Shown here in pieces: positions 32,766-59,462 of a stretch of 64,000 bases of DNA. The notes beneath the pieces were generated by a model. It was not told the DNA's origin, made no database searches, and saw only the letters and a program-made list of their open reading frames with translations. Every line of letters begins with the position of its first letter. The stretch's first letter is position 1. The position numbers and the translations under genes were made by a program. Origin of the DNA: Chloroflexia bacterium (GTDB lineage Bacteria; Chloroflexota; Chloroflexia; QHBQ01; JADMIH01); assembly GCA_035274425.1 (NCBI GenBank), contig DATEOC010000017.1, positions 5,456 through 69,455 of the forward strand, in the 5' to 3' direction.

Positions 32766-32838
32766 GCGGAAGTGGCGCAGCGGTAGCGCGTCTCCTTGCC
32801 AAGGAGAAGGTCGCGAGTTCGAATCTCGTCTTCCGCTC
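32766..32838 (+). tRNA. tRNA-Gly (anticodon GCC)
   Basis: Cloverleaf gcggaag/cttccgc acceptor, anticodon loop ttGCCaa, T-arm ggtcgcgagttcgaatctcgt. Close match to bacterial tRNA-Gly(GCC). Confidence 0.9.
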
Positions 32839-32882
32839 CGAAGGGAAGCCTAATCGCTTCCCTTTTTGTTTGGGACGTTCTT

Positions 32883-33353: not shown

Positions 33354-33374
33354 ATATTTATTCATGACATTTAC

Positions 33375-33459
33375 GCCGGAGTGGCGAAACGGCAGACGCA
33401 AGGCACTTAAAATGCCTCGAGCGCAAGCTCATGCGGGTTCGAGTCCCGCCTCCGGCACC
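33375..33459 (+). tRNA. tRNA-Leu (anticodon TAA), type II with long variable arm; attachment site of the downstream integrated element
   Basis: gccggag acceptor, anticodon loop ctTAAaa, long variable arm cgagcgcaagctcatgc, T-arm gggttcgagtccc. Resembles E. coli tRNA-Leu(UAA). Confidence 0.85.
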
Positions 33460-33546
33460 TATAAGAAAGATGTTCTGAAATCACGCACAAAAATGGAGGC
33501 TAAATAGCCTCCATTAGCTTTTTTATCACCATTTTATCACCGCGCA

Positions 33547-34689
33547 CTAAGAAATATCCTCCAACAGCTTATCTAATCGGCTTGCAGCTTCCTTCTGCAT
33601 ATCCATAGTGACATGACTGTAGCGGTTGAGGGTCATGCTCACATCCGAGTGCCCTAGTCGCTCTTGGACTATCTTGGGGTGTTCCCCGTTTGCAAGCATC
33701 AGGGTGGCACTGGTGTGTCGAAGGTCGTGAAATCTTAGCATTGGTAGTCCGGCCTCAGCTATCAGCCTTTTGAACCGGAGCATAAGCGAGTTAGGCAGTG
33801 TGGGCGTACCGAGTGCAGTGGCGAATACAAGCCCCTGGTCTACGTAGGCTGTGCCGATGGCAAGGCGAGCTTCAAGTTGCCGTATGCGGTGCTTGTGCAG
33901 AGCCTGCACGACTGAACGGGACAGAGCTATAGCGCGCTTCCCTGCTGCTGACTTTGGCTGGCTAAACTCGAAGCCCTTGCCCGCGCTCCTGATTAGCGCA
34001 CGCTTCACGGCCAGCACGCTCCGCTCGAAGTCTACATCTTCCCACTTCAGCCCTAAGATTTCGCCGCGTCTCATGCCAGTGAGCAGGGCGAGCCTCCACA
34101 GTGCTCCTAGCTCATCCTTATCAGACACAGCCAGGAAGGTGCTCACCTGGGTCTGGTTCCAGGTCACATAGTTCGGTGTAATCCGTCTAGGGCGATCTAC
34201 AGCCTCGGTGACGTTGCGGGTGAGCAGCCCCCACCGCACTGCTTGTTTCAGTGCTTTGTGAAGAATAGTGTGTATCTGGGCGACTGTGGTAGGGGATAAG
34301 CGTGCGACCTCCATCCTATCGGAGTAAAGGCGCTGCACATCGAGTGGTGCGAGCTTCGCCAGCTTGATACCGCCTATGAAGGGCATAACATGTTGGCGCA
34401 TAAGGTCTCCATAGCGTCGGTGGGTTGTAGCGCGGGTACTCTGCTTAGAAGACTCCAGCCACTTCTTGAGGTAATCAGTAACGGTGAGCTTCTTTGCATC
34501 TGCTTCTGCAAAGCCGCCCGCGCCGATGGACGCACGTAACTGCATTGCCTTATCCTCAACCTCACGCTTAGTGGCCGCGCTGAGTAGCTTCTGGCGGCGC
34601 TTGCCGGTTATTGGGTCGCGTGGTAGCTCTACGGTGAATTGCCACGTTATGCCCCTCGCACCTACTCTCTTCTCTGCTTTTCCGCTCAC
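33547..34689 (-). CDS. Tyrosine-type site-specific recombinase / integrase
   Basis: C-terminal catalytic region FHDLRHTSATLMLANGEHPKIVQERLGHSDVSMTLNRYSHV (R...HxxR...Y). An N-terminal SAM-like domain is present. The gene abuts tRNA-Leu. Confidence 0.85.
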   Translation of the reverse strand: MSGKAEKRVGARGITWQFTVELPRDPITGKRRQKLLSAATKREVEDKAMQLRASIGAGGFAEADAKKLTVTDYLKKWLESSKQSTRATTHRRYGDLMRQHVMPFIGGIKLAKLAPLDVQRLYSDRMEVARLSPTTVAQIHTILHKALKQAVRWGLLTRNVTEAVDRPRRITPNYVTWNQTQVSTFLAVSDKDELGALWRLALLTGMRRGEILGLKWEDVDFERSVLAVKRALIRSAGKGFEFSQPKSAAGKRAIALSRSVVQALHKHRIRQLEARLAIGTAYVDQGLVFATALGTPTLPNSLMLRFKRLIAEAGLPMLRFHDLRHTSATLMLANGEHPKIVQERLGHSDVSMTLNRYSHVTMDMQKEAASRLDKLLEDIS

Positions 34690-34982
34690 TTTCTTTCTCC
34701 TCTCGTCCTCTGCGCCCGCCTGAGTTTGTTGGCGGGTATCATTTTGGCTTCTTGCTCAATGCGTCTTGCTTTCAAGTACCTGTCTATCTCTGCGGCTTCT
34801 ACCCGCTTGTTGCGGCCTGTAGGTGGTATGCCTATTATCTTTATGCGGCCCGCTAATGCCTCTTTGCGGAGAGTGAACCTGCTGATTGAGAGTAGGCGGC
34901 ACGTTTCCTTGATGGTATAGGCCAGACGTGCGGGCGCTTCATCATTGGTAATCGCTGACTTCATTTTCTCTTCGTTATTCAT
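34686..34982 (-). CDS. Excisionase/AlpA-family helix-turn-helix DNA-binding protein
   Basis: AYTIKETCRLLSISRFTLRKEALAGRIK HTH. Its stop overlaps the integrase start (ATGA). Confidence 0.55.
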   Translation of the reverse strand: MNNEEKMKSAITNDEAPARLAYTIKETCRLLSISRFTLRKEALAGRIKIIGIPPTGRNKRVEAAEIDRYLKARRIEQEAKMIPANKLRRAQRTRGERK

Positions 34983-35293
34983 TTTCTACTCCATGCTGAT
35001 CCGCCTCGTGACCTTGATACCAAACTAACATCTTTCAGACATGGCGGAGCCGTCGCGTCTCTTTGGGGTATTAGGGTATCCTGTTCATATGCTCGGCCAG
35101 CCATACACCCGCGTCAACTTCGTCTGCCACACCTATGGCTTCAAAAGTCGCTATCACTTTGTCAGTGTCCTCGGCGCGATCATAGCTTGTGAGCAGTTCC
35201 CTTGTGTAGTGCCAGGGAGTAGGGCCACGTCTGCGCCCGTAGCGCGTTTTCTTCCCTATCGTTGCCATCAGCGCAATAGGGTCTAGCAGTTCC

Positions 35294-35677
35294 CTAAGCT
35301 GCATGATAACCGCCTCTATTCTGCTGGGGTCGTAACGCATCCAGCACCTCCCATGATATTGATAGCTTCCACGTTCTGTGCTTGCTTCTATGGCAACTCT
35401 TGCACAGCGTTGTAAGATTGTATAACCGATTATCACCCCCCTTACAAAGTGGTACTCTGTGGTGAACTTCAAGTTTGCAGTCAGTCTCATGGCAATCCTG
35501 ACATGTATCGTTATCGCGCAGCAGAGCAGCTTCCCGCACAAAACGCCAACCCGCCCCTCTTGCGCTTCGGCGGCATCTGGTTGAGCAGAAGCCGTGCTGC
35601 GCATTCTTTGGCACGAATGTGTTAGTACATCCTTCCTTAGCACACGTGATAACGACTGTCTTTGTGGGTGTTGCCAT
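35294..35677 (-). CDS. HNH endonuclease (zinc-finger N-terminus + HNH core)
   Basis: CxxxGC...CSTRC N-terminal Cys cluster, then HNH core DCKLEVHHRVPLCKGGDNRLYNLTTLCKSCH. Confidence 0.7.
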   Translation of the reverse strand: MATPTKTVVITCAKEGCTNTFVPKNAQHGFCSTRCRRSARGAGWRFVREAALLRDNDTCQDCHETDCKLEVHHRVPLCKGGDNRLYNLTTLCKSCHRSKHRTWKLSISWEVLDALRPQQNRGGYHAA

Positions 35678-35817
35678 GTGTGTACCTCCTACCTATCTGT
35701 TACTATTCTATCAGAAATGCAGTCAAAATGCAAGGCTCATATGTTCTGAAATTGCAAATTGACTGCAACTCGTTTAGAATTAGTTTGATGGTAGAGAAGT
35801 AGTTAGGCATCGCGGAG

Positions 35818-36057
35818 GTGACAAGGAAAGTTATGGCAGTAATGACATTGAAAACACATAGAGAGAGAGCATTTCTAACCACAAGAGAGCTAGCTGATAA
35901 GGCAGGGGTCACAACCTCAACACTTTGGCGAATTGAGAAGCGCCTACATAAACCACACATTAGCACGATGCGCCGGATCGCTGAGGTGCTGGGCGTCCAC
36001 CCAACGGAGGTAGAAGAATTCGCGGTACGTCGAGAGAGAGACGACTCTGCTAAGTGA
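35818..36057 (+). CDS. XRE-family helix-turn-helix transcriptional regulator
   Basis: LTTRELADKAGVTTSTLWRIEKRLHKPHISTMRRIAEVLGV, an HTH_XRE pattern. Confidence 0.7.
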   Translation: MTRKVMAVMTLKTHRERAFLTTRELADKAGVTTSTLWRIEKRLHKPHISTMRRIAEVLGVHPTEVEEFAVRRERDDSAK

Positions 36058-36491
36058 AGTGTCACATTTATGGCATTTCATGCTGAACGTGATATTTCAC
36101 GATAGTATGTGCATCGGCCTCTACCCCCCCCCCATTTTGGTGCGCGACTTTTTGGGTTCGGCCTCTAAGCCACCCGGACAATTGCAGTATTTCTGCTGCC
36201 TAAACATAGTGGGCTATCATGGCTGGTGGGTGCTTTAGAGCAATAAGAATGAAGTAAAATTATCGGGTGAATATCTGCCGCCACTATTAAGGTATCAGCC
36301 GCCACAAATTAGGTATCTATAGGGCAATGAAGCTAAGGGAGTAGCGGGCCTTGTTGCTGCTTACTACCCTCGGAGTTGAACCTGTGTACGTGCGTGTAGG
36401 CAGTGAGTGTGGGATAACGGGGTAATATGGCGTCACGCACAAGCCGCCTATTGTTGGGTTATGTAAGTTACGGTAATAGGCTGTGACTAAA

Positions 36492-36923
36492 CTAATCACG
36501 CCATTCGGTACTGCCTCGGCAGGGGATACCCTTGCACGTCAAGCATTGTTGGCCGGAGCGCCCACAGCGTAATCCTTTCCGCCAATCTATAGCATTGAGC
36601 CACTCTTGAAGTTCCCGCACCTCTTGGAGTGGAGGCTTGCCGCCTGGCAGTGTGGCCTTCGTCTCGTAGGCTTTCGCTATTGCCGCTTCGTCAATCTCTC
36701 GTAGAAAGCTAGGCCGCGCCTCTGCTTGGACTGCCCCATGCGGGGATAGGTAAATCATAAGCTCGGCCTTGTGCTCCTGTATCTGCTTCGCCAGCGCGGG
36801 AGTCATGGCGCTCTTCGGACCAGTCACTTTCAACCCACCATCCTCGACACTTACCGACAGACCCGCAGTTCTAAGCCCGTCAAGCACTGCGCTTAGAGTG
36901 TCGTCAGTCCTCAGAATGTCCAT
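36492..36923 (-). CDS. Hypothetical protein of the island, translationally coupled to the upstream Prim-Pol gene
   Basis: 143-aa ORF whose start overlaps the Prim-Pol stop by 13 nt. No motif recognised. Confidence 0.45.
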   Translation of the reverse strand: MDILRTDDTLSAVLDGLRTAGLSVSVEDGGLKVTGPKSAMTPALAKQIQEHKAELMIYLSPHGAVQAEARPSFLREIDEAAIAKAYETKATLPGGKPPLQEVRELQEWLNAIDWRKGLRCGRSGQQCLTCKGIPCRGSTEWRD

Positions 36924-39631
36924 GTTTCGATAACCTCCTCTCCTGGGACCATTTTAGAATGACCCTGGATTTCGTCGTCATTGCCGTCATTCAGGCGTAA
37001 GGCATCGTCATTGCGGCCTATTTCACTGTCACCCTTTTGGATAACAGCGTCACTAACAGCATCGCTTTCGGGCGTGGGTATGACGGTAATGACGGGCGTG
37101 ACGCTGTTTTGCACCTTCATTCTAAGAGAGATAGGACGCTTAGTACCGCTCCTATTCAAGAACTGAACATTCAAGCCAAGTTGCCGCAAATTGGGAGCGA
37201 TACGTCGTAAGCAGCCGGAGAGGTCGTTTGGTCGTTTGGGCCAGCCATCCGGTGTTCGGGCATTCTCGCCGTGATTCGCAAAGGAGTTCAACGCGGCCAA
37301 TAACTCGCTTGCAGAACCTACCCACTCGCCGCCGATAACCCCCGATACAAACTCCTGAAGTTTAGCCGCGATAGGTTCCGCCTCCAGTGCGAGGGTATTC
37401 GCTTCGGCGCGGTTGCCAGTGTAAGCTAGCATGAATGCACCTGCTCTTAGCCCCAATGCAGGCTCGGCAGCAGTGACCCACATCGCGAAGTCTGCCATGC
37501 GAGGTTTGCGTTTCAAGCGTACATTAGGGAGGTTCTTGATCGCCATGCACACAGCATCGAGCAGCACACCCAAGATGCGAGGTCGCACCGCCTCAAAGTT
37601 TGCCCATAAGCGACTCTCTTCCATACGTGCATCATCGGGTATTGGTTGAAGCAGCAGGATTACGCCTCGGTCCAACAGGTCGGGACGAGTTATCACATCC
37701 GTTATAGATGTGAGCATTACGGGACGCTGGGCCTCAAAGATAGTCTCTTCCGTACCTGAGTAAAGCTCACGGGTGGCGTAACCGCCGCCAGTGGAGAGCC
37801 TACAAAGTGCATCTGAGAGCCAGGCGGACATGTGCGAGAGATTATCAAATGTGGGCATCCATGCATTAGTAGCGGCAAGAATGAGGTCTTGTCCATTTCT
37901 AGGCTCTGCTCGTAGAGGTGTCTTGTTGGGGTCAACCAAACTGCGTATGATACGCGCCAACGTGCTTTTCGCAGTCCCTTGCTCACCACTTATTGCAGCC
38001 AGGGGATATGGGCCTTCTGGCTTGAATGCACCAATCAAAACCCCCAGGAAAAGTACCCATCCTTCTTCATTTGCGAAGTTCACGAAAGGCCGCAAGTCTT
38101 CTATGCTGCCGCCGCGTTCTGGAATGGGAAGATGTAGCATCCCTTTCGGGCGCTTGAAGCGCACCGGCGCGGCATCACCGTGTATGACTTGCCATCCGTC
38201 AGCCCGCAGTTCTACCACCTTCCAATCTTTTTGTGCCAGGTCCAGATAGATAATATCTCCATCGCGTGCTAATCTGACGTAAACCTCGCGCTCCTTACCT
38301 TGATAGGTTGCTTCACCTTCGAGTGAAATAATTGCATCTTGTAAGGCTTGAGCTCCTGGTACGCGCCCCGTCTCGTTATAGAAGCGTTGGGAGAGCCATG
38401 CCTTGAAAGCCCTCTCCCTGATAGGCCACGTCTCTTTATGCTCCTCTGTGGGAAGTGTTGCAAACGCCTCCTTTTCGGGTGTGTGCCAAAGCTCCACCCC
38501 TTCTACATGGACAAGCTCAACCAGGGTGCTTGATTGCGTCTTCGTCACAGCCGCAGGCGCATTGCTACTCTCTGCTGGTTCGTCTTCGCTGCCATTGGAT
38601 GTAGGGCACTCTTCCGTGCTCTTACCGTATATTGGTCCGCCATAACCCCGTTTGTTCAACTCTGAGGCTGCTGCTGCGAAATCCCCCTTATGCTTAAGTT
38701 TCGTATAGACGCTGAACTTACTATAGCCGCGCTCCGGCTCGAACTCTGTTGATGTAGTGAAGGCGTAGAAAAGGTCAGAGCCTTTATAGTTGATGCTGGC
38801 GCTGATACCCTCGCGCTTGCCTGGCCGTCTTAGATACGTGATTCCTCCCGACTCATAGACGCGCTGCCAACCTTCGGTATACAAGCCTGTATCTTCCCAT
38901 GAGGCAAGGCGATTGAAGGCGTCACCGGGGCGCGCAACGCCGTTCCCATCTGCACCTGCATTCTGCTTGCCGCTACTTTGTTCATGCGCCTCTTCCCTCG
39001 GCATCTGGTCGAATGAGCGGGCCAATTCCCACAGTAACTCTTGCTCTTCCGGTGTGATGACTACTAACGTTGAGATGCCGCCCTGTAAGAGTTCATATGG
39101 TCGCCCAGAAGGGTGTACCTTACCACCCGAAGGCGCTACTATCATGTACCCACCCTCGCCCCGCGTTTCAATTAGCACTTGAATCTTATCGCTTGGGTGC
39201 TTCATCTCATCGGGCTGCTTAGGTCGCCTTGCCAGCTTGGTATTACCTAGTGCGTTGGAGCATCTGTAAAGCCAATGGATACCGCCGCCAGGGGTACGCT
39301 CTAAGTATCCATCCTCAATCTTCCCAATCAAGCCTCCCAGGCCGACCTCAAGCGCCAATTGCTTATACTGCCCATAAGCCTGATAGTCATCGAACTCAAG
39401 CAACGTGAGGCCACCACTCACCAGTCCGCCTATGAAGCCCACCCCACATCGCCCATCAGCATACCATTCAAGTACCTTATCGCGTGGTGGCCGGGCCGAC
39501 TGGTACTGTTTCCATTCACCCTCCGGCTGCTTGGAACCATCCTCTAGAGGCGGCACGATACAAATGCCTGCTTTGTATGCCTCTTTGACGGTTGCCTGGA
39601 TCGCCTGAATAGTAGGAGTTGCGGCGCTCAT
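36911..39631 (-). CDS. Replication protein: N-terminal bifunctional DNA primase-polymerase (Prim-Pol) domain fused to a P-loop NTPase (D5/P4-type helicase-like) domain
   Basis: Prim-Pol-like N-terminus (GICIVPPLEDGSKQP...GVGFIGG...LLEFDD...IETRGEGGYMIVAPS). Walker A GEQGTAKST. Start set at MSAATPT (39631), which has GGGGGA about 10 nt upstream. The ORF track begins 31 codons earlier. Confidence 0.7.
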   Translation of the reverse strand: MSAATPTIQAIQATVKEAYKAGICIVPPLEDGSKQPEGEWKQYQSARPPRDKVLEWYADGRCGVGFIGGLVSGGLTLLEFDDYQAYGQYKQLALEVGLGGLIGKIEDGYLERTPGGGIHWLYRCSNALGNTKLARRPKQPDEMKHPSDKIQVLIETRGEGGYMIVAPSGGKVHPSGRPYELLQGGISTLVVITPEEQELLWELARSFDQMPREEAHEQSSGKQNAGADGNGVARPGDAFNRLASWEDTGLYTEGWQRVYESGGITYLRRPGKREGISASINYKGSDLFYAFTTSTEFEPERGYSKFSVYTKLKHKGDFAAAASELNKRGYGGPIYGKSTEECPTSNGSEDEPAESSNAPAAVTKTQSSTLVELVHVEGVELWHTPEKEAFATLPTEEHKETWPIRERAFKAWLSQRFYNETGRVPGAQALQDAIISLEGEATYQGKEREVYVRLARDGDIIYLDLAQKDWKVVELRADGWQVIHGDAAPVRFKRPKGMLHLPIPERGGSIEDLRPFVNFANEEGWVLFLGVLIGAFKPEGPYPLAAISGEQGTAKSTLARIIRSLVDPNKTPLRAEPRNGQDLILAATNAWMPTFDNLSHMSAWLSDALCRLSTGGGYATRELYSGTEETIFEAQRPVMLTSITDVITRPDLLDRGVILLLQPIPDDARMEESRLWANFEAVRPRILGVLLDAVCMAIKNLPNVRLKRKPRMADFAMWVTAAEPALGLRAGAFMLAYTGNRAEANTLALEAEPIAAKLQEFVSGVIGGEWVGSASELLAALNSFANHGENARTPDGWPKRPNDLSGCLRRIAPNLRQLGLNVQFLNRSGTKRPISLRMKVQNSVTPVITVIPTPESDAVSDAVIQKGDSEIGRNDDALRLNDGNDDEIQGHSKMVPGEEVIETWTF

Positions 39632-39713
39632 AGACACAAATCCCCCAACTCGCCTTTGCACTGCGCCTGGCCCCAAATAGCTCCCTTGCATCTGTTGTTG
39701 GTGCTGTATGACA

Positions 39714-40034
39714 TTAGCGCGCACCCCCTACTTCCCACTTCGAGGCGGTCTCAGGATGTTCAACCTGCGAAACCACCGCACTTTGTTCTGCAAGCCCTGC
39801 CAGTAATGTAGGTGTGTGAAATCTCAATAGTTTGCCGAGCCGCACTTGACCTGGTAGGCCTCCGTTAGTGCGGGCAAGCTCATACATCTTAGACCTGCCT
39901 ACGTGCAATAGGTTCGCAGCCTCAGTTGCGTCTATGAATAACGGCAATTCTTCTACACTACCGTTGCGCAATGTTCTCATTGTCTGTACCTCCAATCTCT
40001 TTAGTCTTTGCCTGCACACCCTGGTTATTACCAT
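39714..40034 (-). CDS. Excisionase-family HTH DNA-binding protein
   Basis: LFIDATEAANLLHVGRSKMYELARTNGGLPGQVRLGKLLRF, an HTH_17-like pattern. Confidence 0.5.
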   Translation of the reverse strand: MVITRVCRQRLKRLEVQTMRTLRNGSVEELPLFIDATEAANLLHVGRSKMYELARTNGGLPGQVRLGKLLRFHTPTLLAGLAEQSAVVSQVEHPETASKWEVGGAR

Positions 40035-40179
40035 CAGTTAACAGCCCGCGTCGCATGGCCTCCAAGCGTAGAAGGAAGCGTAACTGCTCTTCTGGATGAC
40101 GGCACTCCCTATCTGCCATTTCGATTAGGGCTTCCATCTCCGTTAGGTCTAGCGGGACTTTGACCCTTTGAATTTCCAT
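39958..40179 (-). CDS. Small ribbon-helix-helix-like (CopG/antitoxin-type) protein, tentative
   Basis: KVPLDLTEMEALIEMADRE resembles an RHH beta-strand + helix. It overlaps the downstream HTH ORF out of frame. Confidence 0.3.
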   Translation of the reverse strand: MEIQRVKVPLDLTEMEALIEMADRECRHPEEQLRFLLRLEAMRRGLLTDGNNQGVQAKTKEIGGTDNENIAQR

Positions 40180-40305
40180 AGTTACACCTCCACAAATAAA
40201 AAGCTGTACTCAGACTTGCGTCTCTGAATACAGCATAGAGGATATGAATTTCGGCGGGAAGCGTTACGTCGGTTTCGTCGGTTTCGGCGGTCTTAATGAC
40301 ATGGC

Positions 40306-41163
40306 TTAGCCACTTTCGTCTCCCTCGATAGGCTCTTTTGCAGCCCTGCGGTCCATCGCCTTATTGAATATATCCTTTAAATCTCCCGGCCTTCGACGCC
40401 TAAACCTTGCATCTCCCTCCTTTTCTCTAAGAGCAAGCTTCCACCATTCAAACACCTTGTCGTAACTTATACCTCTCCGCCAACGCTTGTATGCCTCGTC
40501 ATGGACTAGCTTTGGTGGGGCACCAGGAATTCCTGGCGGAAATACAACGGTTGATTCTTGCTCTCCTGCAACATCCACTGTGTTGTGCTTGCCTGCAACC
40601 TGTGACATATGCGCTTCCACAACTGGTGTGGCAGGCTCGTCCGGCGTTTGCTCGCCCCAACGCCCGCGCATTATTTTACACAGTGACATGAAGGCATTAA
40701 CCGCAGATGGGCGGCAGCACCTAGCATCTATTTCAATACTATATTCACTTGACTCAATATCCATGTCTGGAGTTCGGATTCTGAACTCAATGAGCGGTAT
40801 AGGAACAAGCCAGGCCTTACGTGCCCGCTCAAATTCGGCATCGGGGAATGAGGTAGGGTCTCGTCTGCCGGTAAGCATGAGCAACCAAGTATCAGAAGCT
40901 ATCTCGGTTAGCGGAGGCACTTCCGTGTTGAAAGAGAAACCACTATTCTTTGTGGTCATATATACCAGAGGCATATTCTCCAGCCAGTATTTTATATGGC
41001 TCACGGTTGTGTACAAGGTAAAGTTCTCGACTTGGTGGCGCGTCCACTTCTCATAGGCCTCCGGCCCCACCCACTCCCTTTCCCATTTCTCGACCTTTTC
41101 AAATTCTTGGCCATCCATAATACCTACCTCAAAGTGAAAACCCGTACCTGATTGTGGGGGCAA
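40306..41163 (-). CDS. Hypothetical island protein (285 aa), no recognisable domains
   Basis: Intact ORF in AT-richer island DNA. Trp-rich, charged. No motif matches. Confidence 0.4.
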   Translation of the reverse strand: MPPQSGTGFHFEVGIMDGQEFEKVEKWEREWVGPEAYEKWTRHQVENFTLYTTVSHIKYWLENMPLVYMTTKNSGFSFNTEVPPLTEIASDTWLLMLTGRRDPTSFPDAEFERARKAWLVPIPLIEFRIRTPDMDIESSEYSIEIDARCCRPSAVNAFMSLCKIMRGRWGEQTPDEPATPVVEAHMSQVAGKHNTVDVAGEQESTVVFPPGIPGAPPKLVHDEAYKRWRRGISYDKVFEWWKLALREKEGDARFRRRRPGDLKDIFNKAMDRRAAKEPIEGDESG

Positions 41164-41362
41164 TCAAGCACGGGCTTCCTTGCTGGCATTATACTCTTTC
41201 TCGTGGTTGTAGATGCCCCCACACCGCAAATCACTGACCTTATTGTACCACTTAGTATGGTTGTGGAAGGGTTCTCGCCTCAGACTGTGCAATTCATACA
41301 GGCATCTATGATATGGGCCACCCTGGTATCGCCTCGTCTATCGCCTCCATAAGCCTCATTGT

Positions 41363-41572
41363 CTATTGCAGAGGAGCAAGCACGCGACTGTTGTGGTAGA
41401 GATCGTCAAACGTCAGTGTGCGGACCTTGCGGTCTTTCAGCCACTTTTCTGCTACATGGTAGCCGCCGATGTGGAAGTCCCACACCTGTGGTGACACGTC
41501 CTCGAAGTATTGCGTCTTGTTGATAGGGATATGGACCGGCTGATTACCTTGTGGCGATATGTACGACCTCAT
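41363..41572 (-). pseudogene. Remnant encoding only the C-terminal ~70 aa of a type IIG/IIL (MmeI-like) restriction-modification or BREX PglX-type methyltransferase
   Basis: VWDFHIGGYHVAEKWLKDRKVRTLTFDDLYH matches the conserved C-terminal motif (VW.F.IGGYQV..KWLK.R) of the MmeI/PglX family. There is an in-frame stop immediately upstream, so the rest of the gene is absent. Confidence 0.5.
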
Positions 41573-41878
41573 CGAAGCTGTCTCTTACCCACCGCGCCTG
41601 CACATCTACCCTGACCACATCCGACTTGGATCTATCGGCTAGAACGGCCAAATGTCGGCGAAAGATCGTAGTCGGCATGCGATATGGTAAGCCCTATCGA
41701 GGGAAATACCCGAATCTGTGGCAATTGTTGCCTCGTTTGTGTAGACGTGTCCACTCCGGAACCATCACAAGCAGGTTACATCTGTTGAGCACGCTGCGAG
41801 CATTGACAATTAGCGCGAACTAGTGTAACATCCACGCGGTTTACCTCGAAACTCGCCTCAAATAGCTTATTTGGATTT

Positions 41879-42106
41879 TTGACTATTGTGGGAACAACAA
41901 AAACTCGACAGGTGCTGGGTGCCCAGATGAAGCGCTATCGTAGATTATTGCGACTTTCCCAACAAGACCTGTCCAAACTGTCTGGCCTTAATCGAAGCTA
42001 TCTGGGAAGCGTTGAACGTGGTGAGCGTAATATTGGGATAGATAACCTAGAGGAAGTTGCTAAAGCACTAGGAATTGAAGCCTGGCAACTTCTGCGCGAG
42101 GAATGA
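41879..42106 (+). CDS. Controller (C) protein of a restriction-modification system (XRE-type HTH)
   Basis: RSYLGSVERGERNIGIDNLEEVAKALGIEAWQLL closely follows the C-protein pattern (R.YIS.VERG.RN.SL..L.KIA.AL). A TTGTgggaACAA palindrome lies within the first 50 nt, so the true start may be the downstream MKRYRR (41927). Confidence 0.6.
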   Translation: MTIVGTTKTRQVLGAQMKRYRRLLRLSQQDLSKLSGLNRSYLGSVERGERNIGIDNLEEVAKALGIEAWQLLREE

Positions 42107-42115
42107 TCCCCACAT

Positions 42116-43378
42116 CTATAGGTCCGGTTTTCGCAGTACAAGTATTCCATCCTTCTTGCCTGCTCCATTTCCATGATAGTCGGCGCGGGCAGTGTATGCA
42201 TATTTTCCGACGCCAAAATGAGTTGTTCGATAAATTATCTGCGTAAGTTCAAAACCAATACTAATCGCTATCTCAGAACACATCGCCAGTACAGGCACTA
42301 GCTCTCCGTGGATTGTAGCATCACCTAGAACAACACAGCAGTAACAGCCGGGTTGGAGCACAGTGAGCGCCTGCAAAAGCATTTGGCGCTGGTTGTCGAA
42401 GTACGATTGGTATATCTCCTTCTTTGTGGCTGGCCAAGCACGAATTTCTAAGCTACGAAGTGTTTCCAAGTCATATTGTCCCCAGAGTTCGGGGAAACCC
42501 TTTGCCCATTGAAACTCAAGGTTATAAGCCGGAAAGTAATCAAAGGAATTAAGATAAGGTGGATGTGCGATTATCAAACCTATCGGCTCTTCCTTCGTGA
42601 CAGGTAGCCGGGACAATTCGCGATTGTCTGCTAGCTCGGCCACCGCTGACACATTAGTACGCGTGCGCAAATTCCATTCCATCTCCCGGTCTATCATCTC
42701 TCGTACCTTCTTAGCATAAGCCTTCCATACAGGACGTGGCCTTTTGTCCTTATTTATGTGAGGTCGGATTTCACCGTCATAGGCATTGGATACACGACGA
42801 ATGATAGCAAAATACGCTAGTGTAAAGAACTCACGATATTCGTCTTCCTGGAGTTGAAGAATGCATGATTTGAGTATAGCAAGACTGTTTCTTGATAACT
42901 CACTGAACCATTTGTCAACGCTAGGCGTGTTTGGAAGATATTGTTTAGCAATATCGAGGGATGCGTTGTACGTATATTTTGACCTATTTGTTATCAGATC
43001 CTCGCTGCTTAGTAGCAATGAGTAATGTTCTTCCAGCAACGCACTTAAGTCTTGCCAGCGCCTATTTAGCTCAACTACCGAGTAGTTACGGCACTTTACG
43101 CGACATGCAAGAATAGCAAAAGGATTAACATCTACACCAATCGAGTTATAACCGGCTAGTTTAGCTTCAACCAGTGTTGTACCTGACCCGGCATAGTTGT
43201 CGAGTATGGTCATATTGGGGCGAGCGAATTCATCAATGAGTTTCTTCGCTACTAGAGAAGGGAACTTACCGTAGTACCTGAAGAAGTTGTGAGTGAGGTA
43301 GGCAAGCTCTGAAATTGACTCCGAGATGTCCCAAGTTTGCGTGGGTACATTAGCAACCTCGTCAAATAGCGTAGGCAT
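42116..43378 (-). CDS. DNA methyltransferase (N6-adenine/N4-cytosine amino-MTase family), motif I before motif IV
   Basis: Motif I ILDNYAGSGTTLVEA (FxGxG). Motif IV LIIAHPPY ((D/N/S)PPY-like) ~200 aa downstream. AT-richer than the host. Confidence 0.7.
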   Translation of the reverse strand: MPTLFDEVANVPTQTWDISESISELAYLTHNFFRYYGKFPSLVAKKLIDEFARPNMTILDNYAGSGTTLVEAKLAGYNSIGVDVNPFAILACRVKCRNYSVVELNRRWQDLSALLEEHYSLLLSSEDLITNRSKYTYNASLDIAKQYLPNTPSVDKWFSELSRNSLAILKSCILQLQEDEYREFFTLAYFAIIRRVSNAYDGEIRPHINKDKRPRPVWKAYAKKVREMIDREMEWNLRTRTNVSAVAELADNRELSRLPVTKEEPIGLIIAHPPYLNSFDYFPAYNLEFQWAKGFPELWGQYDLETLRSLEIRAWPATKKEIYQSYFDNQRQMLLQALTVLQPGCYCCVVLGDATIHGELVPVLAMCSEIAISIGFELTQIIYRTTHFGVGKYAYTARADYHGNGAGKKDGILVLRKPDL

Positions 43379-43496
43379 GATTGCTCCTTATAAGTATCAG
43401 CTTCATATTGAGTTCATCATACCTAATCTGTGGGGACGAGTCAACAGTTATGCACATCAATCATAAGTACTGCGATCTACACAAGGAGGCTATTCG

Positions 43497-44543
43497 ATGG
43501 ACTACACTGAGGGGGACATAGAGACGGAGGCACTTCCTGGGCAAAGAACAACACAGGAGGGCATCTCGAAAATATTCTACTTTTTTGAGCGCTACACAAC
43601 ATTATCTAGTGGCCGCACAATCGGTCGGAAAATCGGTGTGGTCCAGGAGATTGTAGTTCGTAGCTATTTGTTACAGTATGGACGTTTGGCTGATGCTGTG
43701 ATCTTCGAGCCGCAACTTCCTGGTTACTCTGGAGCAACCCACAAAGTAGAGTTCGTGTTTTGTCAGCCGATCAAAGTAGTAGAATTTGGTCTAGGATGTT
43801 CTAGTCCAATTGGATCCTGCCAATTTACGCTGTTGTCGATAGATACGGAAAAGATGCGGGCGACATTCTCAGTAACGAACGGAGAAAGAGAACAAAAAGC
43901 AACCTTGATACCCTTTCAAGTGCTGGATAGCGCAAAAGGGAATAAGGGTAAAGGTGTACTCTCATTCGGAGCAACTGTCAAGATAAGCACTCTCACCGAT
44001 GATCGGGTCAGGCTTGTCGTTCTTGACCGCGCAGACGTAAGAGCGTCCGTTGAGAGCAAACGGGTTGGAGCACAGCGTTTTTCTGGCTCTGATAAGCTCG
44101 GTGCAGGTATTCAGACTATCGAAAAGGCAAAGCAAGCTTCTTTGGTGGCCATTGATGCCGACCTCCTGTTTAATGGACAGCTAAAAGTACTTTCAGTACC
44201 TGGGGCAACTAGGCGCTACATTTCTGTGGTTGTTCTAGGTAACGGTGTTCACTGGACCGAGAAAGACTTGAGCGTGCTAAAGACTTATGTAGACTTTACA
44301 TTCCTAATTCCTGACGACTCTATCATTCGGTACGCGGAACATGTACTCCAACTCGCAACAGAAGCTGGCCACCCCTTCATTGATTTCTTTCAATCGTATT
44401 TTGAGGGAATGACCAAAGCGGTTCCCGATGGATTTACTGTAGGCGAGGGGGACTTTCAGGTTCTAAGGCCGGAAACAGAGACGCGAACACTGTCGGATAT
44501 TCTCGATTCGCAACTGGACACTTACCCAATAGTTGAAGCATAG
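43497..44543 (+). CDS. Candidate restriction endonuclease partner of the adjacent methyltransferase (hypothetical protein)
   Basis: Inference from position: divergent from the MTase, next to a C gene, in lower-GC DNA. No nuclease motif recognised; type II REases are rarely recognisable by eye. Confidence 0.35.
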   Translation: MDYTEGDIETEALPGQRTTQEGISKIFYFFERYTTLSSGRTIGRKIGVVQEIVVRSYLLQYGRLADAVIFEPQLPGYSGATHKVEFVFCQPIKVVEFGLGCSSPIGSCQFTLLSIDTEKMRATFSVTNGEREQKATLIPFQVLDSAKGNKGKGVLSFGATVKISTLTDDRVRLVVLDRADVRASVESKRVGAQRFSGSDKLGAGIQTIEKAKQASLVAIDADLLFNGQLKVLSVPGATRRYISVVVLGNGVHWTEKDLSVLKTYVDFTFLIPDDSIIRYAEHVLQLATEAGHPFIDFFQSYFEGMTKAVPDGFTVGEGDFQVLRPETETRTLSDILDSQLDTYPIVEA

Positions 44544-44775
44544 CAATAAGCTCAAAATAGAGATGAACCGTAGTGTTGACAGCAGCCCTTCAACGCATAA
44601 GGTAGGCATATCTTCTTAGTCACAAATTTATCACACCATATGCATAATCAACCCATCTCAACGATCACCAAGTAACATAGTAGGCAAATCCACAGGCACA
44701 AACCCCACTACTCATCTATCCCCAACCATCACCACTCTCTCGAATCTCGCCTTCGGCACAAATATAAAGTCTTCT

Positions 44776-47700
44776 CTAATAAGCAGATAGAAGTTTGACT
44801 TCATCTGCAATCACGACCGGGTGCATCTTCAAAGCTATAGTATCGCTGTGCCTCAGATCATCAGGTGGCTGCACTCCTACCCCGCGACCCTTCCCGCTTA
44901 CTTGGACACGTCCCGTAATTATGAAGGGACCGTGCCCACCGTTGACTAACACTTTCCCATTGCCCTGGTAGGCATCGGAAAATAGCACCACCTCTATAAG
45001 TCCGTCTCGGTCCTGTATGGATAGGAAGAGCATCCACTTGCCATCTTTACCCCTATGCCTGCGACCTGCCACCGCAATTCCTGCCACCTTCACATTATGG
45101 TCTGCATATCGGTGTAGCTCGCTCGATGGAATAGCGCCCGGCACTTCCAGCCACTCCATCTCATTGTGACTCAAGGTAAACCCTAACGCCTCTTGCTCCA
45201 ACTTCAGTTTTTCGGTTGGTGTATAGTCATCCAACTGTGGCACGTCAATGTGTAGCGTATTCCTGCCTAATATCTTAGGGTTGCCAATGCCCCCACCTGC
45301 ACCACGATCTGCACTAGGATGAATGAAGTCCCCACCTATAGCTATTTGCAACCCCATGCCTTTGCCATCCGAGCCTGTAGCGAATAGTCTATCTGCGATT
45401 GACTGGCGACTTGTACTCCTCACTGTAAGGCTACGTGTTGACAGGAGAGCTGGCAAGAGCCTCATCATCTGCTTGCGGTTTAGGTCCATTATAGGCTCAT
45501 ATACAGCCTCTATCGTTTCGCCCATGCTTCCACGTATTGACGCAATCGAGGGTATGCTTGCATCTCCTCCCAGGTTATCGCAAGCTCCCACCTTCACCAG
45601 TGCTGTTATCTCCTGCGGACCCATTTCTACCCTCGCCATCAAATCAAGTAGAGAGTGAAACCGCCCGCCGTTGCGCCGCTCATTGAGTATAGCCGCTACC
45701 GTCTTCTCTGATAGACCTTTCACGAACTGCAAGCCGAAGCGGATGCTACGCTGTTCGCCTGAGCCTGTAGGCACTTCGCACCATGAGCCACTTTCGTTTA
45801 CGTGGGGCACAAGTAGCTTTATGCGTAAGCGTCGAGCGTCTTCGACGTAGACGGATGGCCCATAATAACCCCCGCCGTTGTTGATTTGCGCGGCCAGGAA
45901 CATAGCCGGGTAGTGCGCCTTCATATAGGCCGAACGGTAGGCAGTAAGGGCGTAGGAGTGAGCATGAGCCGCGCAGAAGCCGAAGCCCGTATAGCCCGCT
46001 ATTATCTCCCATACCTTCTGAGCCTGTAACTGGTCTATGCCCCGTTCTATCGCCCCCGCTACAAACTGACTTCCCATTTGGGTGCGCTCATCCGCCGAGC
46101 GCGTCTTGCCCAACGCTTTGCGTAGCTTCTCAGCTTCGCCCAGGTTCAGCCCTGCCAGCTTATGCACCAGTTTTAGGAACTGCTCCTGGAACAGTATCAC
46201 TCCTTTAGTGTTCCTCAGTATCTCCTCCATAGAAGGGTGCAGGTAGCTTATCTCCTCTTGCCCTACGTGCCGCCGCACGAAGGCTTCCAGAAAGCCTCCC
46301 TCTAATGGCCCCGGCCTGAATAGAGAAATCGCCACCGCTACATCGTCCAGGTTGCGTGGTCTGAGCCACTTCAATAATCCGCGCATACCCGGACTCTCCA
46401 ACTGGAAGCAGCCGAGGGTATCCCCTTCGGCCATCATGCGATAGGTGCGCTCATCATCTATTGGGATAGCTTGCAGCCATTTTTCTAGTTCACCACCCTT
46501 ACCACCCTTACCACCTTTGCCAGTTGCCATACCTGATGCTTGCACAGCATCCACCAGCGTTGTAAGCGCCCGGCTGCCGAGTATATCCATCTTTACCAGG
46601 CCCAGCACCTCTATGGCATCTTTGTCGTATTGGGTGATAGCCATTGAGGGGTCGCGTGCTGCCCTTTGCAAAGGAACCAGATTAGCCAAAGGGTCGGGCG
46701 TTATGACCACCGCAGCGCAGTGCATACCAGCGTGGCGGGGCAAGCCTTCGATAGCGTGCGCCAGGGCAAAGGCGGTGCGCTCATTGTCATCTCGCAGCTT
46801 TGGAGTCGGGGCGGTATCATTCTCCTCATCATGGGCATCGGATAATGCCTCATATTCCAGCGCCTCTTCCATAGCCTCTATATCACCTGAGCCATCTGGA
46901 TCGCCTGTGCTATCTGAGTCATCTCCATAATCGAAAGCATGGGGAAGGCGGTTAGCCATATAGCTGATGCGGTCTGCCCTTACACCCATGACTTTAGCCA
47001 TCTCTCGCCACGCCGAGCGCAAACGAAATGTGATATGAGTGCCCACCGTCGCCACATGGTCGCGTCCATAACGCTCATATATGTAGTGCAATACCTGGTC
47101 TCGCCCGCGCCAGCACACATCGAGGTCTATGTCCGGCATCTCAAACTCTGCACGTGCAGGGTTCAAGAACCGCTCAAAGAGGAGGTCTTTCTGAATAGGG
47201 TCTACCTGGGTAATACCAAGCACGTATGCCACCAGGCTGTTAGCGGCGGAACCACGCGCCATGATGGGGATGTCTTTCGATTGGGCAAAACGCACTATGT
47301 CATATACGACAAGAAAGTAGGCAGAGAAGCCTAGCGCCTCTATAATCTCTAGCTCATGCTTCAGGCGGGCTAGAACCTGCTCAGTAAGAGGGCGATAACG
47401 GCTAGTGGCTCCGGCAAAACATAGCTTCCAAAGTTTGGAGAACGGGGTCTCACCACTCGGCAAATCCACGCCTGGAAAGAGAGGTTTGTAAAGAGGGAGT
47501 TCAAGATTGCACTGTTCGGCTATGAAGTGAGTATTGGCTATGGCCTGTGGGTAGTCAGCAAAGAGGTGGGCCATCTCATCCGCCGACTTGAAGTAGCGTT
47601 CGGTCCCTACTTCCTCTTGTAGAGCTGCATCGCCTCTTAGCTCACCTATAGCCTGCGTATGCGCACTGTATTTGCGCCTGATACCTTTGCGAGCAGAGGC

Positions 47701-48480
47701 TAGAGCACGGGCGGTAGCTGCATCTTTGTCGGCAAGGTAAAGCACATCGTTTGTCGCTACGATGGGCACTCCCATGTCATTCGCCAGACTGATCAGGGCG
47801 GGCAGAGTGGCAGCATCCTTATCGTCAAGCAACTGCAATTCGATAAAGACGTTCCCCTCGCCGAAGGCCGTTATGAGAGTGCCTATAGACCTTGCCGCTT
47901 GCTCCATCTTGCCTCGCCTGACCAGTGAATTGACAAGCCCATGCCGTCCACCAGATAAGGCTATCAGCCCTCTGGCATGGCGACCCGATAACAATAGCTC
48001 GCGGGGTAGAAGCGGCTCTTTTTGTAGTCGTAGCGAAGGCGAAGCTGCGAGCTTGGATTTCTTCGGCTTATCGGTAAAGCCGAACACTGGCACACCCCAC
48101 ACCCCATCCTCCCAAAATGGCGCTTCTTCCTCTTCATTATAGCCCGGTGGCTCTAAGGCTTGGGGGTCGGCGTTGAGTCGGAGGACGGTTGCCAACTGGC
48201 AGAGGTTGCGATAGCCGTCCATGTTCCGGGCCAATAGCACTAGACTTGATGATTGCACCTCGCCCGCTTCGTCAAGGTCAATCTCCATGCCCACTATCGG
48301 CTTGATACCTGATTTCTGAGCCTGGACATAGAAAGAGACTGCCCCATATAGGCTATTGTGGTCCGTGAGCGCCAGCGCGCTCATGCCTTGCTTTTTGGCT
48401 GTGCTGATGAGGTTCTGAGGCGTGGCCGTGCCTTCTAGGAGGGAGTAACCGGAATGGCAATGGAGATGCACAAACCCCAT
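44776..48480 (-). CDS. dnaE: DNA polymerase III alpha subunit family protein (DnaE/DnaE2-like) with unusual acidic/low-complexity insertions
   Basis: N-terminal PHP domain HLHCHSGYSLLEG...ALTDHNSLYG. Fingers/palm blocks (GSAANSLVAYVLGIT, PDIDLDV, FGFCAAHAHSYA). C-terminal OB-fold. Insertions include DDSDSTGDPDGSGDIEAMEEALEYEALSDAHDEEND and GKGGKGGKGG. Confidence 0.8.
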   Translation of the reverse strand: MGFVHLHCHSGYSLLEGTATPQNLISTAKKQGMSALALTDHNSLYGAVSFYVQAQKSGIKPIVGMEIDLDEAGEVQSSSLVLLARNMDGYRNLCQLATVLRLNADPQALEPPGYNEEEEAPFWEDGVWGVPVFGFTDKPKKSKLAASPSLRLQKEPLLPRELLLSGRHARGLIALSGGRHGLVNSLVRRGKMEQAARSIGTLITAFGEGNVFIELQLLDDKDAATLPALISLANDMGVPIVATNDVLYLADKDAATARALASARKGIRRKYSAHTQAIGELRGDAALQEEVGTERYFKSADEMAHLFADYPQAIANTHFIAEQCNLELPLYKPLFPGVDLPSGETPFSKLWKLCFAGATSRYRPLTEQVLARLKHELEIIEALGFSAYFLVVYDIVRFAQSKDIPIMARGSAANSLVAYVLGITQVDPIQKDLLFERFLNPARAEFEMPDIDLDVCWRGRDQVLHYIYERYGRDHVATVGTHITFRLRSAWREMAKVMGVRADRISYMANRLPHAFDYGDDSDSTGDPDGSGDIEAMEEALEYEALSDAHDEENDTAPTPKLRDDNERTAFALAHAIEGLPRHAGMHCAAVVITPDPLANLVPLQRAARDPSMAITQYDKDAIEVLGLVKMDILGSRALTTLVDAVQASGMATGKGGKGGKGGELEKWLQAIPIDDERTYRMMAEGDTLGCFQLESPGMRGLLKWLRPRNLDDVAVAISLFRPGPLEGGFLEAFVRRHVGQEEISYLHPSMEEILRNTKGVILFQEQFLKLVHKLAGLNLGEAEKLRKALGKTRSADERTQMGSQFVAGAIERGIDQLQAQKVWEIIAGYTGFGFCAAHAHSYALTAYRSAYMKAHYPAMFLAAQINNGGGYYGPSVYVEDARRLRIKLLVPHVNESGSWCEVPTGSGEQRSIRFGLQFVKGLSEKTVAAILNERRNGGRFHSLLDLMARVEMGPQEITALVKVGACDNLGGDASIPSIASIRGSMGETIEAVYEPIMDLNRKQMMRLLPALLSTRSLTVRSTSRQSIADRLFATGSDGKGMGLQIAIGGDFIHPSADRGAGGGIGNPKILGRNTLHIDVPQLDDYTPTEKLKLEQEALGFTLSHNEMEWLEVPGAIPSSELHRYADHNVKVAGIAVAGRRHRGKDGKWMLFLSIQDRDGLIEVVLFSDAYQGNGKVLVNGGHGPFIITGRVQVSGKGRGVGVQPPDDLRHSDTIALKMHPVVIADEVKLLSAY

Positions 48481-48804
48481 GACAGACCTACTTCATTAGT
48501 CCAACAGCATGAATGTAACGTCGTTCTAATTACATACATATCACAGAACTAATGTTCTAGTCAAGAGGATTGGCTATTATTGGTGCAAATCTGCTGATAG
48601 ATATGCTATAATCCCTTTACGGTGACGTAATCTCAGTTTGATAAAATGACATATTAAGTGCGCGGTCAGGCACCATTTTTTATCACCAGTTTATCACGGC
48701 CTGCTTATAACAACCTATCCCGAACCATCACTAAGCATCACTGCTCACGCACAAATAGGTACGGAGGCATACAATCTAACGCCAACTAACACCTACTTGT
48801 GTAA

Positions 48805-48821
48805 TCCCGCCTCCGGCACCT
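48805..48821. repeat. attR-like direct repeat: 17-bp copy of the tRNA-Leu 3' end
   Basis: tcccgcctccggcacct is identical to 33444-33460. It sits within a 665-bp AT-rich non-coding region. Confidence 0.7.
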
Positions 48822-49146
48822 TCCCCGTCTCTATGTTCACTTCCACTTGCAGTGATATTCTAAAACTAGGCATAAAAAGAGATACAAAACGGACCTCTTT
48901 TTCTTTTCGCTCACAAATCGCTCATTTAACTACATATTACTCCACCTGACAGCATATCCTGTTACTTTATCCCGCAATTTAGCCAATTCTGGTGATGCGG
49001 CCTCTTACTTCATAGCTTAAGATAGAGCTTACTTCCACCTTTTCTGCGGTTCGTGTCTACTCCCTATTGACCAGAAGGTGCTGCTGAGTGGTATAATTGG
49101 TCGCATAATTTCTGCGGTCTAATAGTCTATTGCCGGAGGTTGGGCA

Positions 49147-55914: not shown

Positions 55915-55924
55915 GGTTGATGCA

Positions 55925-59401: not shown

Positions 59402-59462
59402 CTGGATGATAGACGATAATCACGCATCACTTATTAACTGCATAAGGTGAGTAACACAACAT

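Follow-up and report, generated by a model that had tools for sequence, protein, structure and literature searches.

A stretch of 64,000 nt from a Chloroflexia bacterium (GenBank assembly GCA_035274425.1, contig DATEOC010000017.1, positions 5,456 to 69,455 of the forward strand; hereafter the window) was analyzed for an island of 15.4 kb at the 3' end of a tRNA-Leu(TAA) gene. The interval is an inserted, non-prophage element that bears an integrase and a PrimPol protein, and positions 33444-48821 are probably a tandem accretion array of three modules delimited by attachment (att) sites. This reading follows from two further attR-like sites that were found between the outer att pair (∼41759-41865 and 44590-44762). 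An earlier note, made from the letters of the window, had described a single integrative, replicative element other than a prophage; the integrative, replicative and non-prophage character was upheld, but the two internal sites spoke against one element. Counted from the tRNA, the array consists of tRNA/attL, a backbone of 8.4 kb, a relic att site, a restriction-modification (RM) module of 2.9 kb, a diverged att site, a dnaE module of 4.06 kb, an intact attR and a relic P' arm, after which nonribosomal peptide synthetase (NRPS) genes begin.

Outer attachment sites and the same locus in related genomes

The core sequence TCCCGCCTCCGGCACCT comprises the last T-loop base, the 3' T-stem, the 3' acceptor stem, the discriminator base and the CCT of tRNA-Leu. 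Two exact copies were found in the window (chance expectation, 0.01), one at the end of the tRNA gene and one within a 666-bp non-coding stretch, and no third site with up to two mismatches was present in the window. The GC content was 0.45-0.55 between the two copies vs 0.58-0.63 outside. The 22-mer TTTTTTATCACCAKTTTATCAC, with its pair of TTATCAC repeats, also occurred exactly twice in the window, once in each outer arm (33519-33540 and 48676-48697; chance expectation, 0.00). The outermost attR matches attL in the core (17/17) and in the arm-type repeats, and the two copies are the genuine attL and attR cores. The exact tRNA-Leu repeat, the non-coding surroundings of its distal copy and a motif near both ends as possible arm-type sites had all been reported in the earlier note, and all were recovered here.

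Related loci were found by way of PrimPol and the flanking host methyltransferase, and three of them (L040, L041 and L012) were informative, with host genes of 86-92% DNA identity to the window and more than 10 genes in synteny. L040 is an empty site, in which the tRNA-Leu gene is followed directly by TATTTACCTCAATCAT and then by the host genes UbiA and RecR. L041 contains a 2.4-kb remnant without an integrase, consisting of the tRNA, a decayed P' arm, an open reading frame (ORF) of 459 amino acid residues (aa), a P arm, the core TCCCGCCTCCAGTAC and the flank TATTTACCTCAATCAT. L012 contains a 10.3-kb sister element with the same backbone order, with no RM system and no dnaE, which is bounded by an exact repeat (the 16-nt core pattern exact; 18 bp by eye). 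The outer flank of L012 and the flank that follows the tRNA in L040 share 96% identity, and a relic P' arm and integrase pseudogene fragments lie beyond the L012 attR. The earlier note had suggested looking for an empty tRNA-Leu locus in relatives; L040 provides it, the flanks of L041 and L012 match it, and site-specific insertion at the tRNA-Leu end is confirmed by these genomes. L121, which ends right after the methyltransferase gene, and L122 added no further state of the locus. A possible crossover marker, the T-to-C change that separates the tRNA T-stems of L040 and L041, was dropped, as both att copies of L041 carry C. Metagenome scans with the P-arm/core junction TAATCCCGCCTCCGGCAC gave 26 matches, none of which had arm motifs or similarity to the element, and scans with the full tRNA-Leu sequence gave 0 matches.

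Both TTATCAC repeats were kept in the P' and P arms of the L012 element, and the P arm of the window aligned with that of L012 at a z-score of ∼20. Intact TTATCAC pairs are present in the outer arms of the window and in L012; those of the middle site of the window and of all integrase-less relics have degenerated. Given that they were kept in the sister element and decayed in the remnants, the TTATCAC repeats behave as arm-type sites.

It was also considered that the island is fixed and no longer mobile, a fossil of past integrations whose outer repeat survives as the tRNA copy and a short copy. Between the window and L012, the P and P' arms are 72-78% identical, close to the 71-81% of host non-coding spacers, as long vertical residence would allow; the distal flank has undergone rearrangement; and the contigs on record showed one arrangement, with no other junctions for the integrase or DnaE. 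However, the ratios of nonsynonymous to synonymous substitution (dN/dS) relative to L012 (0.08 for the integrase, which is 87% identical to its counterpart, and 0.16 for PrimPol, which is ∼71-74% identical) indicate that both genes are under strong purifying selection. Moreover, the outer core is exact and the arm repeats are intact in both arms, whereas the adjacent relic arms have decayed, and close relatives differ in occupancy (empty, remnant and 10.3-kb element). A fixed island is therefore considered unlikely.

The three modules and the internal attachment-like sites

Module 1 (33461 to ∼41865) is the autonomous part of the array and contains the integrase, Xis-like helix-turn-helix (HTH), HNH, XRE and PrimPol genes as well as orphan genes (Table 1). 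The integrase gene starts 87 bp from the end of tRNA-Leu, and the XRE/cI-type regulator is encoded by the sole plus-strand gene of the backbone; the tyrosine integrase abutting the tRNA and the XRE regulator of the earlier note were both supported by profile matches. Of the two Xis-type HTH proteins that it had listed, the first passed the Pfam threshold and matched an excisionase family, but the second fell below the threshold. Of its HNH endonucleases, one lies within the island, but the other lies outside, between tRNA-Gly and tRNA-Leu. The Prim-Pol part of its Prim-Pol/P-loop protein was supported by Pfam and PHROG matches, but no profile supported the P-loop, and the sole P-loop-like feature of the protein is a deviant Walker-A-like GEQGTAKS.

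PrimPol is 100% identical to database entry HKP51503.1, as a methyltransferase of the window is to HKP51496.1; in database annotations PrimPol has 906 aa and starts at 39631. Its N-terminal third is 41% identical to primase/polymerases of Arthrobacter phages. Over residues 413-869, it shares 37-45% identity with hypothetical proteins encoded on plasmids of 12-20 kb (Methanothrix, Methylobacterium and Candidatus Chlorohelix) and 32% with a protein of a Microbacterium phage whose annotation is helicase or primase. The orphan backbone protein encoded at 40306-41163 had no match in Pfam, PHROG, PADLOC or NCBIfam, and only five relatives (two with an E-value <1e-10) were found among 1.84 billion representative proteins. 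The Type IIG fragment next to it covers only positions 1004-1056 of 1096 in the REase_MTase_IIG model. TubC_N, the domain matched by the 143-aa protein, is a docking domain of NRPS systems; the L012 counterpart of this protein has 194 aa.

No capsid, terminase, portal or tail gene was detected by Pfam or PHROG in any ORF of the interval, in agreement with the absence of capsid and terminase genes stated in the earlier note. Neither Pfam nor PHROG gave a relaxase or type IV secretion match in the interval, and no coupling protein or FtsK-like translocase gene was found there by Pfam, the orphan proteins being uncharacterised. When the integrase and PrimPol were compared with viral contigs, nothing close was found, the best integrase match being 36% identical.

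Module 2 (∼41866-44762) is a Type II RM cassette with C (controller), M (methyltransferase) and R (restriction endonuclease) genes. These three adjacent genes with their PADLOC matches bear out the RM system of the earlier note. Module 3 (44763-48821) consists only of a DnaE-family polymerase gene with a LexA-type box and its promoter. Neither the RM module nor the dnaE module contains a recombinase gene, and both have kept att-like sites.

The attR-like site between the RM and dnaE modules (site 2) is located in the 231 bp that separate the restriction gene from dnaE, whose stop codon lies 14 bp past the core TCTCGCCTTCGGCAC. This core, equal at 13/16 positions, is the best non-exact core in the interval. 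Over ∼170 bp, site 2 is homologous to the P arm plus core of the right end and has the same orientation (local score 42 vs 18.1 ± 2.4 for dinucleotide shuffles, z 9.8), and z-scores of 7.1 and 5.5 were obtained against L012 and L041, respectively. At the site between the backbone and the RM module (site 1), which is oriented likewise, the P-arm box GAACCATCAC is present, which occurs in the window only at 41759 and at 48722 in the right P arm. The TCGAAACTCGCCTC of site 1 equals the middle site at 13/14 positions, with variants in common, and is without the TCGGCAC of the middle site. Its spacing from box to core is 92 nt vs 81-86 nt at the other sites, so that five sites in three loci are spaced by 81-92 nt. 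Within the scanned interval 33001-49300, positions 41846 and 44740 were the only ones with the core-like TCGAAnCTCGCC. The two proximal relic sites read TCGAAnCTCGCCT, with a T-loop-like TCGAA to the left of the core, and the outer site, L012 and L041 read TGTGTAA|TCCCGCC without the variants of the two proximal sites.

Table 1. Features of the tRNA-Leu island and their supporting evidence (window coordinates; the islands and loci of relatives are given by their handles).
Feature	Position	Strand	Evidence or details
tRNA-Leu(TAA), integration target	33375-33459	+	ARAGORN; Rfam tRNA model, 56.8 bits
attL core, 17 bp, equal to attR	33444-33460	+	Exact repeat
P' arm	33461-33546	+	Terminator-like hairpin 33492-33515; two arm-type TTATCAC repeats 33519-33540; 78% identical to L012 P' arm
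Tyrosine integrase, 380 aa	33547-34689	-	Pfam Phage_integrase 1.5e-27 and SAM_3; PHROG 1 integrase 5.8e-80
Xis-like HTH_17 protein, 98 aa	34686-34982	-	Pfam HTH_17 8.9e-7; PHROG 66 'excisionase and transcriptional regulator'
Conserved 89-aa protein	35071-35340	-	Gene call in L001/L002; 82% identical to L012 counterpart; no family match
HNH endonuclease, 127 aa	35294-35677	-	Pfam HNH 3.8e-9; PHROG HNH families
XRE/cI-type regulator	35818-36057	+	PHROG transcriptional repressor/regulator 2e-9; HTH_3 in L002 annotation
143-aa TubC_N-like protein, overlapping the PrimPol gene end	36492-36923	-	Pfam TubC_N 2e-9; conserved in L012
PrimPol replicase, 937-aa ORF	36911-39724	-	Pfam Prim-Pol 1.5e-10; PHROG 19930 DNA polymerase/primase 1.9e-55
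Second small HTH_17-like protein	39714-40034	-	Pfam HTH_17 1e-4, below Pfam threshold
73-aa protein	39958-40179	-	Gene call in L001-L004; no family match
Orphan backbone protein, 270-285 aa	40306-41163	-	Conserved in L012
Type IIG/ISP restriction enzyme fragment, pseudogene relic, 69 aa	41363-41572	-	Pfam Type_ISP_C 5.6e-13; PADLOC REase_MTase_IIG
Decayed attR-like site 1	41759-41865	+	P-arm box GAACCATCAC 41759-41768; core-like TCGAAACTCGCCTC from 41846; two short matches and spacing
C (controller) protein	41879-42106	+	Pfam HTH_3 6.9e-13; PADLOC Control_protein 1.7e-17
Type II DNA methyltransferase, 420 aa	42116-43378	-	PADLOC MTase_II 4.8e-85; Pfam N6_N4_Mtase
Type II restriction endonuclease, 348 aa	43497-44543	+	PADLOC REase_II 1.3e-14
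attR-like site 2 (middle site)	44590-44762	+	Diverged P arm; intact TTTATCAC 44627-44634; box AACGATCAC 44660; core TCTCGCCTTCGGCAC 44745; alignment and core match
DnaE-family polymerase, 1234 aa	44776-48480	-	Pfam PHP, DNA_pol3_alpha, finger, HHH_6, weak OB
dnaE promoter	48481-48620	-	LexA-type box GAACATTAGTTC (coding strand) at 48546-48557; sole GAAC-N4-GTTC in window
Intact P arm	48640-48804	+	Arm-type repeats 48676-48697; box GAACCATCAC at 48722; 75-80% identical to L012 P arm
attR core, exact 17 bp	48805-48821	+	Repeat of tRNA-Leu end
Decayed P' arm of older element	48822-48945	+	Arm repeats degenerated to TTTTCGCTCACAAATCGCTCA; homologous to stretch beyond L012 attR

Several features were observed around the island. 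A tRNA-Gly gene (32766-32839; ARAGORN, Rfam) precedes tRNA-Leu, and the 535-bp spacer between them encodes, at 32796-33353 on the plus strand, a protein with HTH_28 and HNH endonuclease domains (Pfam 4e-6 and 1.6e-5). This looks like a free-standing insertion of the homing-endonuclease type just outside the island; the same spacer has 37 bp in L041. The window and L012 have a tRNA-Leu(TAA) that departs from those of L040 (12708-12789) and L041 (11786-11867) across the anticodon stem and variable arm. The tRNA-Gly is identical in the window and L012, and the flanking host genes have 86-92% DNA identity. The tRNA-Leu gene seems to have been exchanged, with the spacer, along with the island. On the proximal side, ∼700 bp at 31054-31751 (with a 209-aa ORF at 31110-31739 that had no family match) are missing from L012, L040 and L041 between conserved host genes. 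The distal flank (49147-64000) contains an NRPS cluster with ORFs of 2255, 1158 and 1166 aa and condensation, AMP-binding and PP-binding domains; UbiA and RecR stand at its position in the relatives, which points to a rearrangement or a further insertion at the distal end of the island. In L041, a second GAACCATCAC box at 16342, ∼2 kb past attR, may mark a further relic.

The DnaE-family polymerase gene and its LexA-type box

The dnaE product is 100% identical to database entry HKP51510.1, and its Pfam domains agree with the DnaE-family assignment of the earlier note. The promoter reads TTGACT-aGAACATTAGTTCtgtg-ATAT, with GAAC-N4-GTTC located between the -35 and -10 elements. As shown by the related loci, the promoter TTGACT-aGAACnnnnGTTCt-TGATAT is conserved across the DnaE clade (L005-L008, ∼9857-10000); a LexA-type box was present in 4/4 of the first-examined related loci, and the exact box in 12 of the 16 reference-genome loci of the clade. 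In Firmicutes and Actinobacteria, GAAC-N4-GTTC is known as a LexA box (PMC4951493).

Full-length relatives of DnaE, with identities of 86-54%, were found across Chloroflexia metagenome-assembled genomes (MAGs); the reference-genome scan for this clade returned only loci that matched two peptide patterns. In 83 other loci (4 metagenome and 79 reference-genome), no integrase, PrimPol, tRNA-Leu or att site was found near dnaE. An ancestral adjacency of tRNA-Leu and dnaE, sought through synteny, was rejected given that no tRNA-Leu or att core lies near dnaE elsewhere. In three genomes with dnaE at 89% DNA identity, the homology ends sharply at approximately -145 on one side and the stop codon on the other; beyond these limits the flanks are unrelated and contain mobile and defence genes. 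The core region beside the methyltransferase gene is syntenic at a divergence similar to that of dnaE. Since only the dnaE unit from -145 to the stop codon is homologous between loci, the gene appears to relocate as a promoter-plus-ORF unit; no flanking repeats were seen at the relocated unit. The neighbours of dnaE relatives (L005, 6242-9025; flanks of L006 and L008) included a cyclic-oligonucleotide-based antiphage signaling system (CBASS; SMODS, E2 and SAVED), SIR2, a STAND NTPase, RHS toxins and a Mu-type transposase with TniB. The MAG SMAG_U3384 contains two full-length DnaE copies (L043, 10001-13648; L048, 10001-13621) that are 67% identical and each have a LexA-type box, and these represent paralogues unless the bin is mixed.

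These observations bear on whether the 15.4 kb could be a single integrative, replicative element in which DnaE and PrimPol form its own replisome and the internal att-like stretches are chance or regulatory repeats. The outer cores and arm motifs are indeed the best-matched pair, the GC content at third codon positions of dnaE (0.57) is nearer to that of the element genes (0.44-0.62) than to that of host genes (0.71-0.75), and C-family polymerases occur on plasmids. However, the L012 sister has the same backbone and arms without dnaE, the relatives of dnaE were never found beside an integrase or PrimPol gene in the 83 other loci, and its host-type LexA box is conserved across a Chloroflexia-wide clade. 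Furthermore, the synonymous divergence of dnaE from its closest copy (0.72, L005) falls within the 0.50-0.95 of host genes when the window is compared with L040/L041, and the homology, orientation and spacing of the middle site are against chance repeats. A single element is thus highly improbable. DnaE is a passenger and probably not the replication gene of the element, and its inclusion by the earlier note among the genes of one element was not sustained.

To place the polymerase among DnaE families, it was compared with the NCBIfam models, and neither cut-off was passed: 817 bits vs 1002 for the DnaE1 model (NF004226) and 688 bits vs 939 for the DnaE2 'error-prone DNA polymerase' model (NF004225). 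The OB fold was located by Pfam at residues 1137-1195 of 1234, and a weak alignment to the OB folds of the Mycobacterium tuberculosis and Escherichia coli DnaE1 enzymes stops at residue ∼1180. As the OB fold ends ∼50 residues before the C-terminus, DnaE has no C-terminal (tau-binding) domain. The metal positions of the PHP domain are changed (His to Ser, Cys to Gly, His to Leu and Asp to Glu) and vary within the clade. Outside three proteobacterial classes, Bacteroidetes and Fusobacteria, DnaE1 is reported to keep the C-terminal domain and an intact PHP site (PMC3919608). The missing C-terminal domain and the replaced PHP ligands are therefore DnaE2-like features by the criteria of Timinskas et al. 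(PMC3919608). DnaE is most likely, at moderate confidence, an accessory and predicted SOS-inducible polymerase of the flexible genome. The higher score on the DnaE1 than on the DnaE2 model speaks against this assignment, as does the absence of imuA/imuB from the window and from the four annotated related loci.

That DnaE is the main replicase of the lineage is less likely, but deserves to be weighed. In its strictest form, which we regard as doubtful, DnaE would be the only essential replicative alpha subunit of the host, trapped between att sites, so that losing the composite would be lethal, which would stabilise the island. DnaE1 is the best-matching profile and DnaE1 enzymes are the best relatives of solved structure, the clade occurs widely among these Chloroflexia MAGs, the dN/dS of the gene is ∼0.1, and the essential DnaE3 of Bacillus subtilis is also SOS-inducible (PMC3919608). 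On the other hand, the protein falls below both equivalog cut-offs, leaves no room for a tau-binding domain, and has a degenerate PHP metal site that varies in the clade, unlike non-proteobacterial DnaE1. The two copies in one MAG and the occurrence of the gene in unrelated contexts at 89% nucleotide identity also count against this reading.

DnaE2/ImuC offers the closest comparison for an accessory polymerase. Like DnaE of the window, it lacks the tau-binding domain, has a degenerate PHP site and a LexA-box promoter, and shows a patchy, mobile distribution, with some genomes holding more than one copy (PMC3919608; Erill et al. 2006, as cited in PMC4951493). Unlike DnaE2/ImuC, DnaE of the window is below the family cut-off, has no adjoining imuA/imuB in the loci examined, and carries two clade-specific insertions (1234 aa vs ∼1050 aa).

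Proposed assembly of the array and comparison with known systems

Under the preferred reading of a tandem array, a family of tyrosine-integrase elements sharing the tRNA-Leu site would have built the island, and each module would end in a P arm plus core of the attR type, of which only the outermost is intact. The integrase, with the Xis-like protein, is predicted to recombine attL with an attR-type site, and the XRE protein may repress the leftward operon. PrimPol would replicate the excised circle, so that module 1 could replicate once excised. In the simplest and most likely history, a dnaE-bearing, integrase-less remnant like that of L041 would have been resident first, after which an element with the backbone and the RM module would have integrated at the tRNA. 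The integrase is predicted to be able to remove 11.3 kb at the proximal end (attL × the 44745 site) or all 15.4 kb (attL × 48805), and excision of the whole unit would carry the RM system and the polymerase gene as cargo. A three-step model of integration, decay to a cis-mobilizable element (CIME) and accretion, as well as the transfer of whole composites, has been described (PMC5704250), and the proposed history conforms to it.

The integrase-mediated insertion of a dnaE circle at a resident attR was set aside as the only history, given that the right P arm resembles that of L012. This resemblance is explicable by functional conservation, so it does not settle the order of events. Owing to the intact outer att pair, the 15.4-kb unit is predicted to move whole under either history.

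Some observations count against an accretion array with this history. The evidence for site 1 consists of two short matches and their spacing. Element genes have a higher synonymous divergence from L012 (0.94-1.07) than host genes have (0.57-0.63), an excess that fits independent arrival and faster evolution alike. The distal flank of the window, with its NRPS cluster, differs from the UbiA/RecR flank of the relatives, and only the tRNA-side junction can therefore be matched to the empty site. The gradient of decay (41846 the most decayed, then 44745, with 48805 intact) fits the successive capture of cassettes at the distal att site equally well. In the extended form of such capture, which we consider distinctly improbable, the array would be a platform whose phage-type tyrosine integrase, at a tRNA att site, takes up and releases single-function circles that have only a P arm and core; in the window, the RM system and the DnaE-family polymerase gene, which would be LexA-regulated, would be such circles. 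If this were true, SOS polymerases could use the platform to pass from one variable region to another in these Chloroflexia genomes, and it would be integron-like in function while built from a different recombination system.

The tandem array resembles the composites built from integrative and conjugative elements (ICEs) plus CIMEs, such as ICESt1/ICESt3-CIME of Streptococcus thermophilus and the tRNA-Lys composites of S. agalactiae, in its serial integration at the 3' end of one gene (PMC5704250). In these composites, as in the array, integrase-less modules keep att sites, the internal chimeric att sites are direct, and one integrase module lies at the target end (PMC5704250). Excision of a sub-unit or of the whole composite ('gene capture') is possible in them (PMC5704250) and is predicted here. 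Unlike the ICE-CIME composites, the array has no recognised conjugation or mobilisation genes, its autonomous unit has a PrimPol-type replicase, and its integrase-less modules are single-function cassettes that keep only a P arm and core. Within the Chloroflexota, the ssrA islands of Dehalococcoides are likewise arranged in tandem at a small-RNA gene with direct 3'-end repeats, and some of them are without an integration module and were interpreted as CIMEs (PMC3146451). These islands differ in having a serine recombinase, a transfer-messenger RNA gene as target and rdhA genes (PMC3146451), whereas the array has a tyrosine integrase, arm-type sites and tRNA-Leu.

The backbone, for its part, is similar to phage-inducible chromosomal island (PICI) and P4 satellites and to integrative plasmids with a primase-helicase, which are ∼8-11 kb in size, tRNA-integrated and free of structural genes. 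The core set in common with PICI/P4 satellites comprises an integrase, an AlpA/Xis-type HTH protein, an XRE-type regulator and a primase-polymerase. No PHROG match to terS, cpm/ppi, capsid-remodelling or psu/sid/delta hijacking genes was found, the remaining ORFs being orphans, and 'satellite/PICI-like' describes no more than a likeness in core genes.

The locus is a clean, well-bounded case of island accretion at a tRNA site in uncultured soil Chloroflexia, for which few mobile elements have been described. Four states of occupancy are known (empty, 2.4-kb remnant, 10.3-kb element and 15.4-kb composite), and they define attB, attL, attR, the arm-type sites and a PrimPol replicase common to small plasmids. 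Accretion is a known process, and the general understanding of integrative elements is unchanged by this locus. The sole unusual point is the LexA-box DnaE-family gene between att sites; if the composite excises whole, it would show how such polymerases spread.

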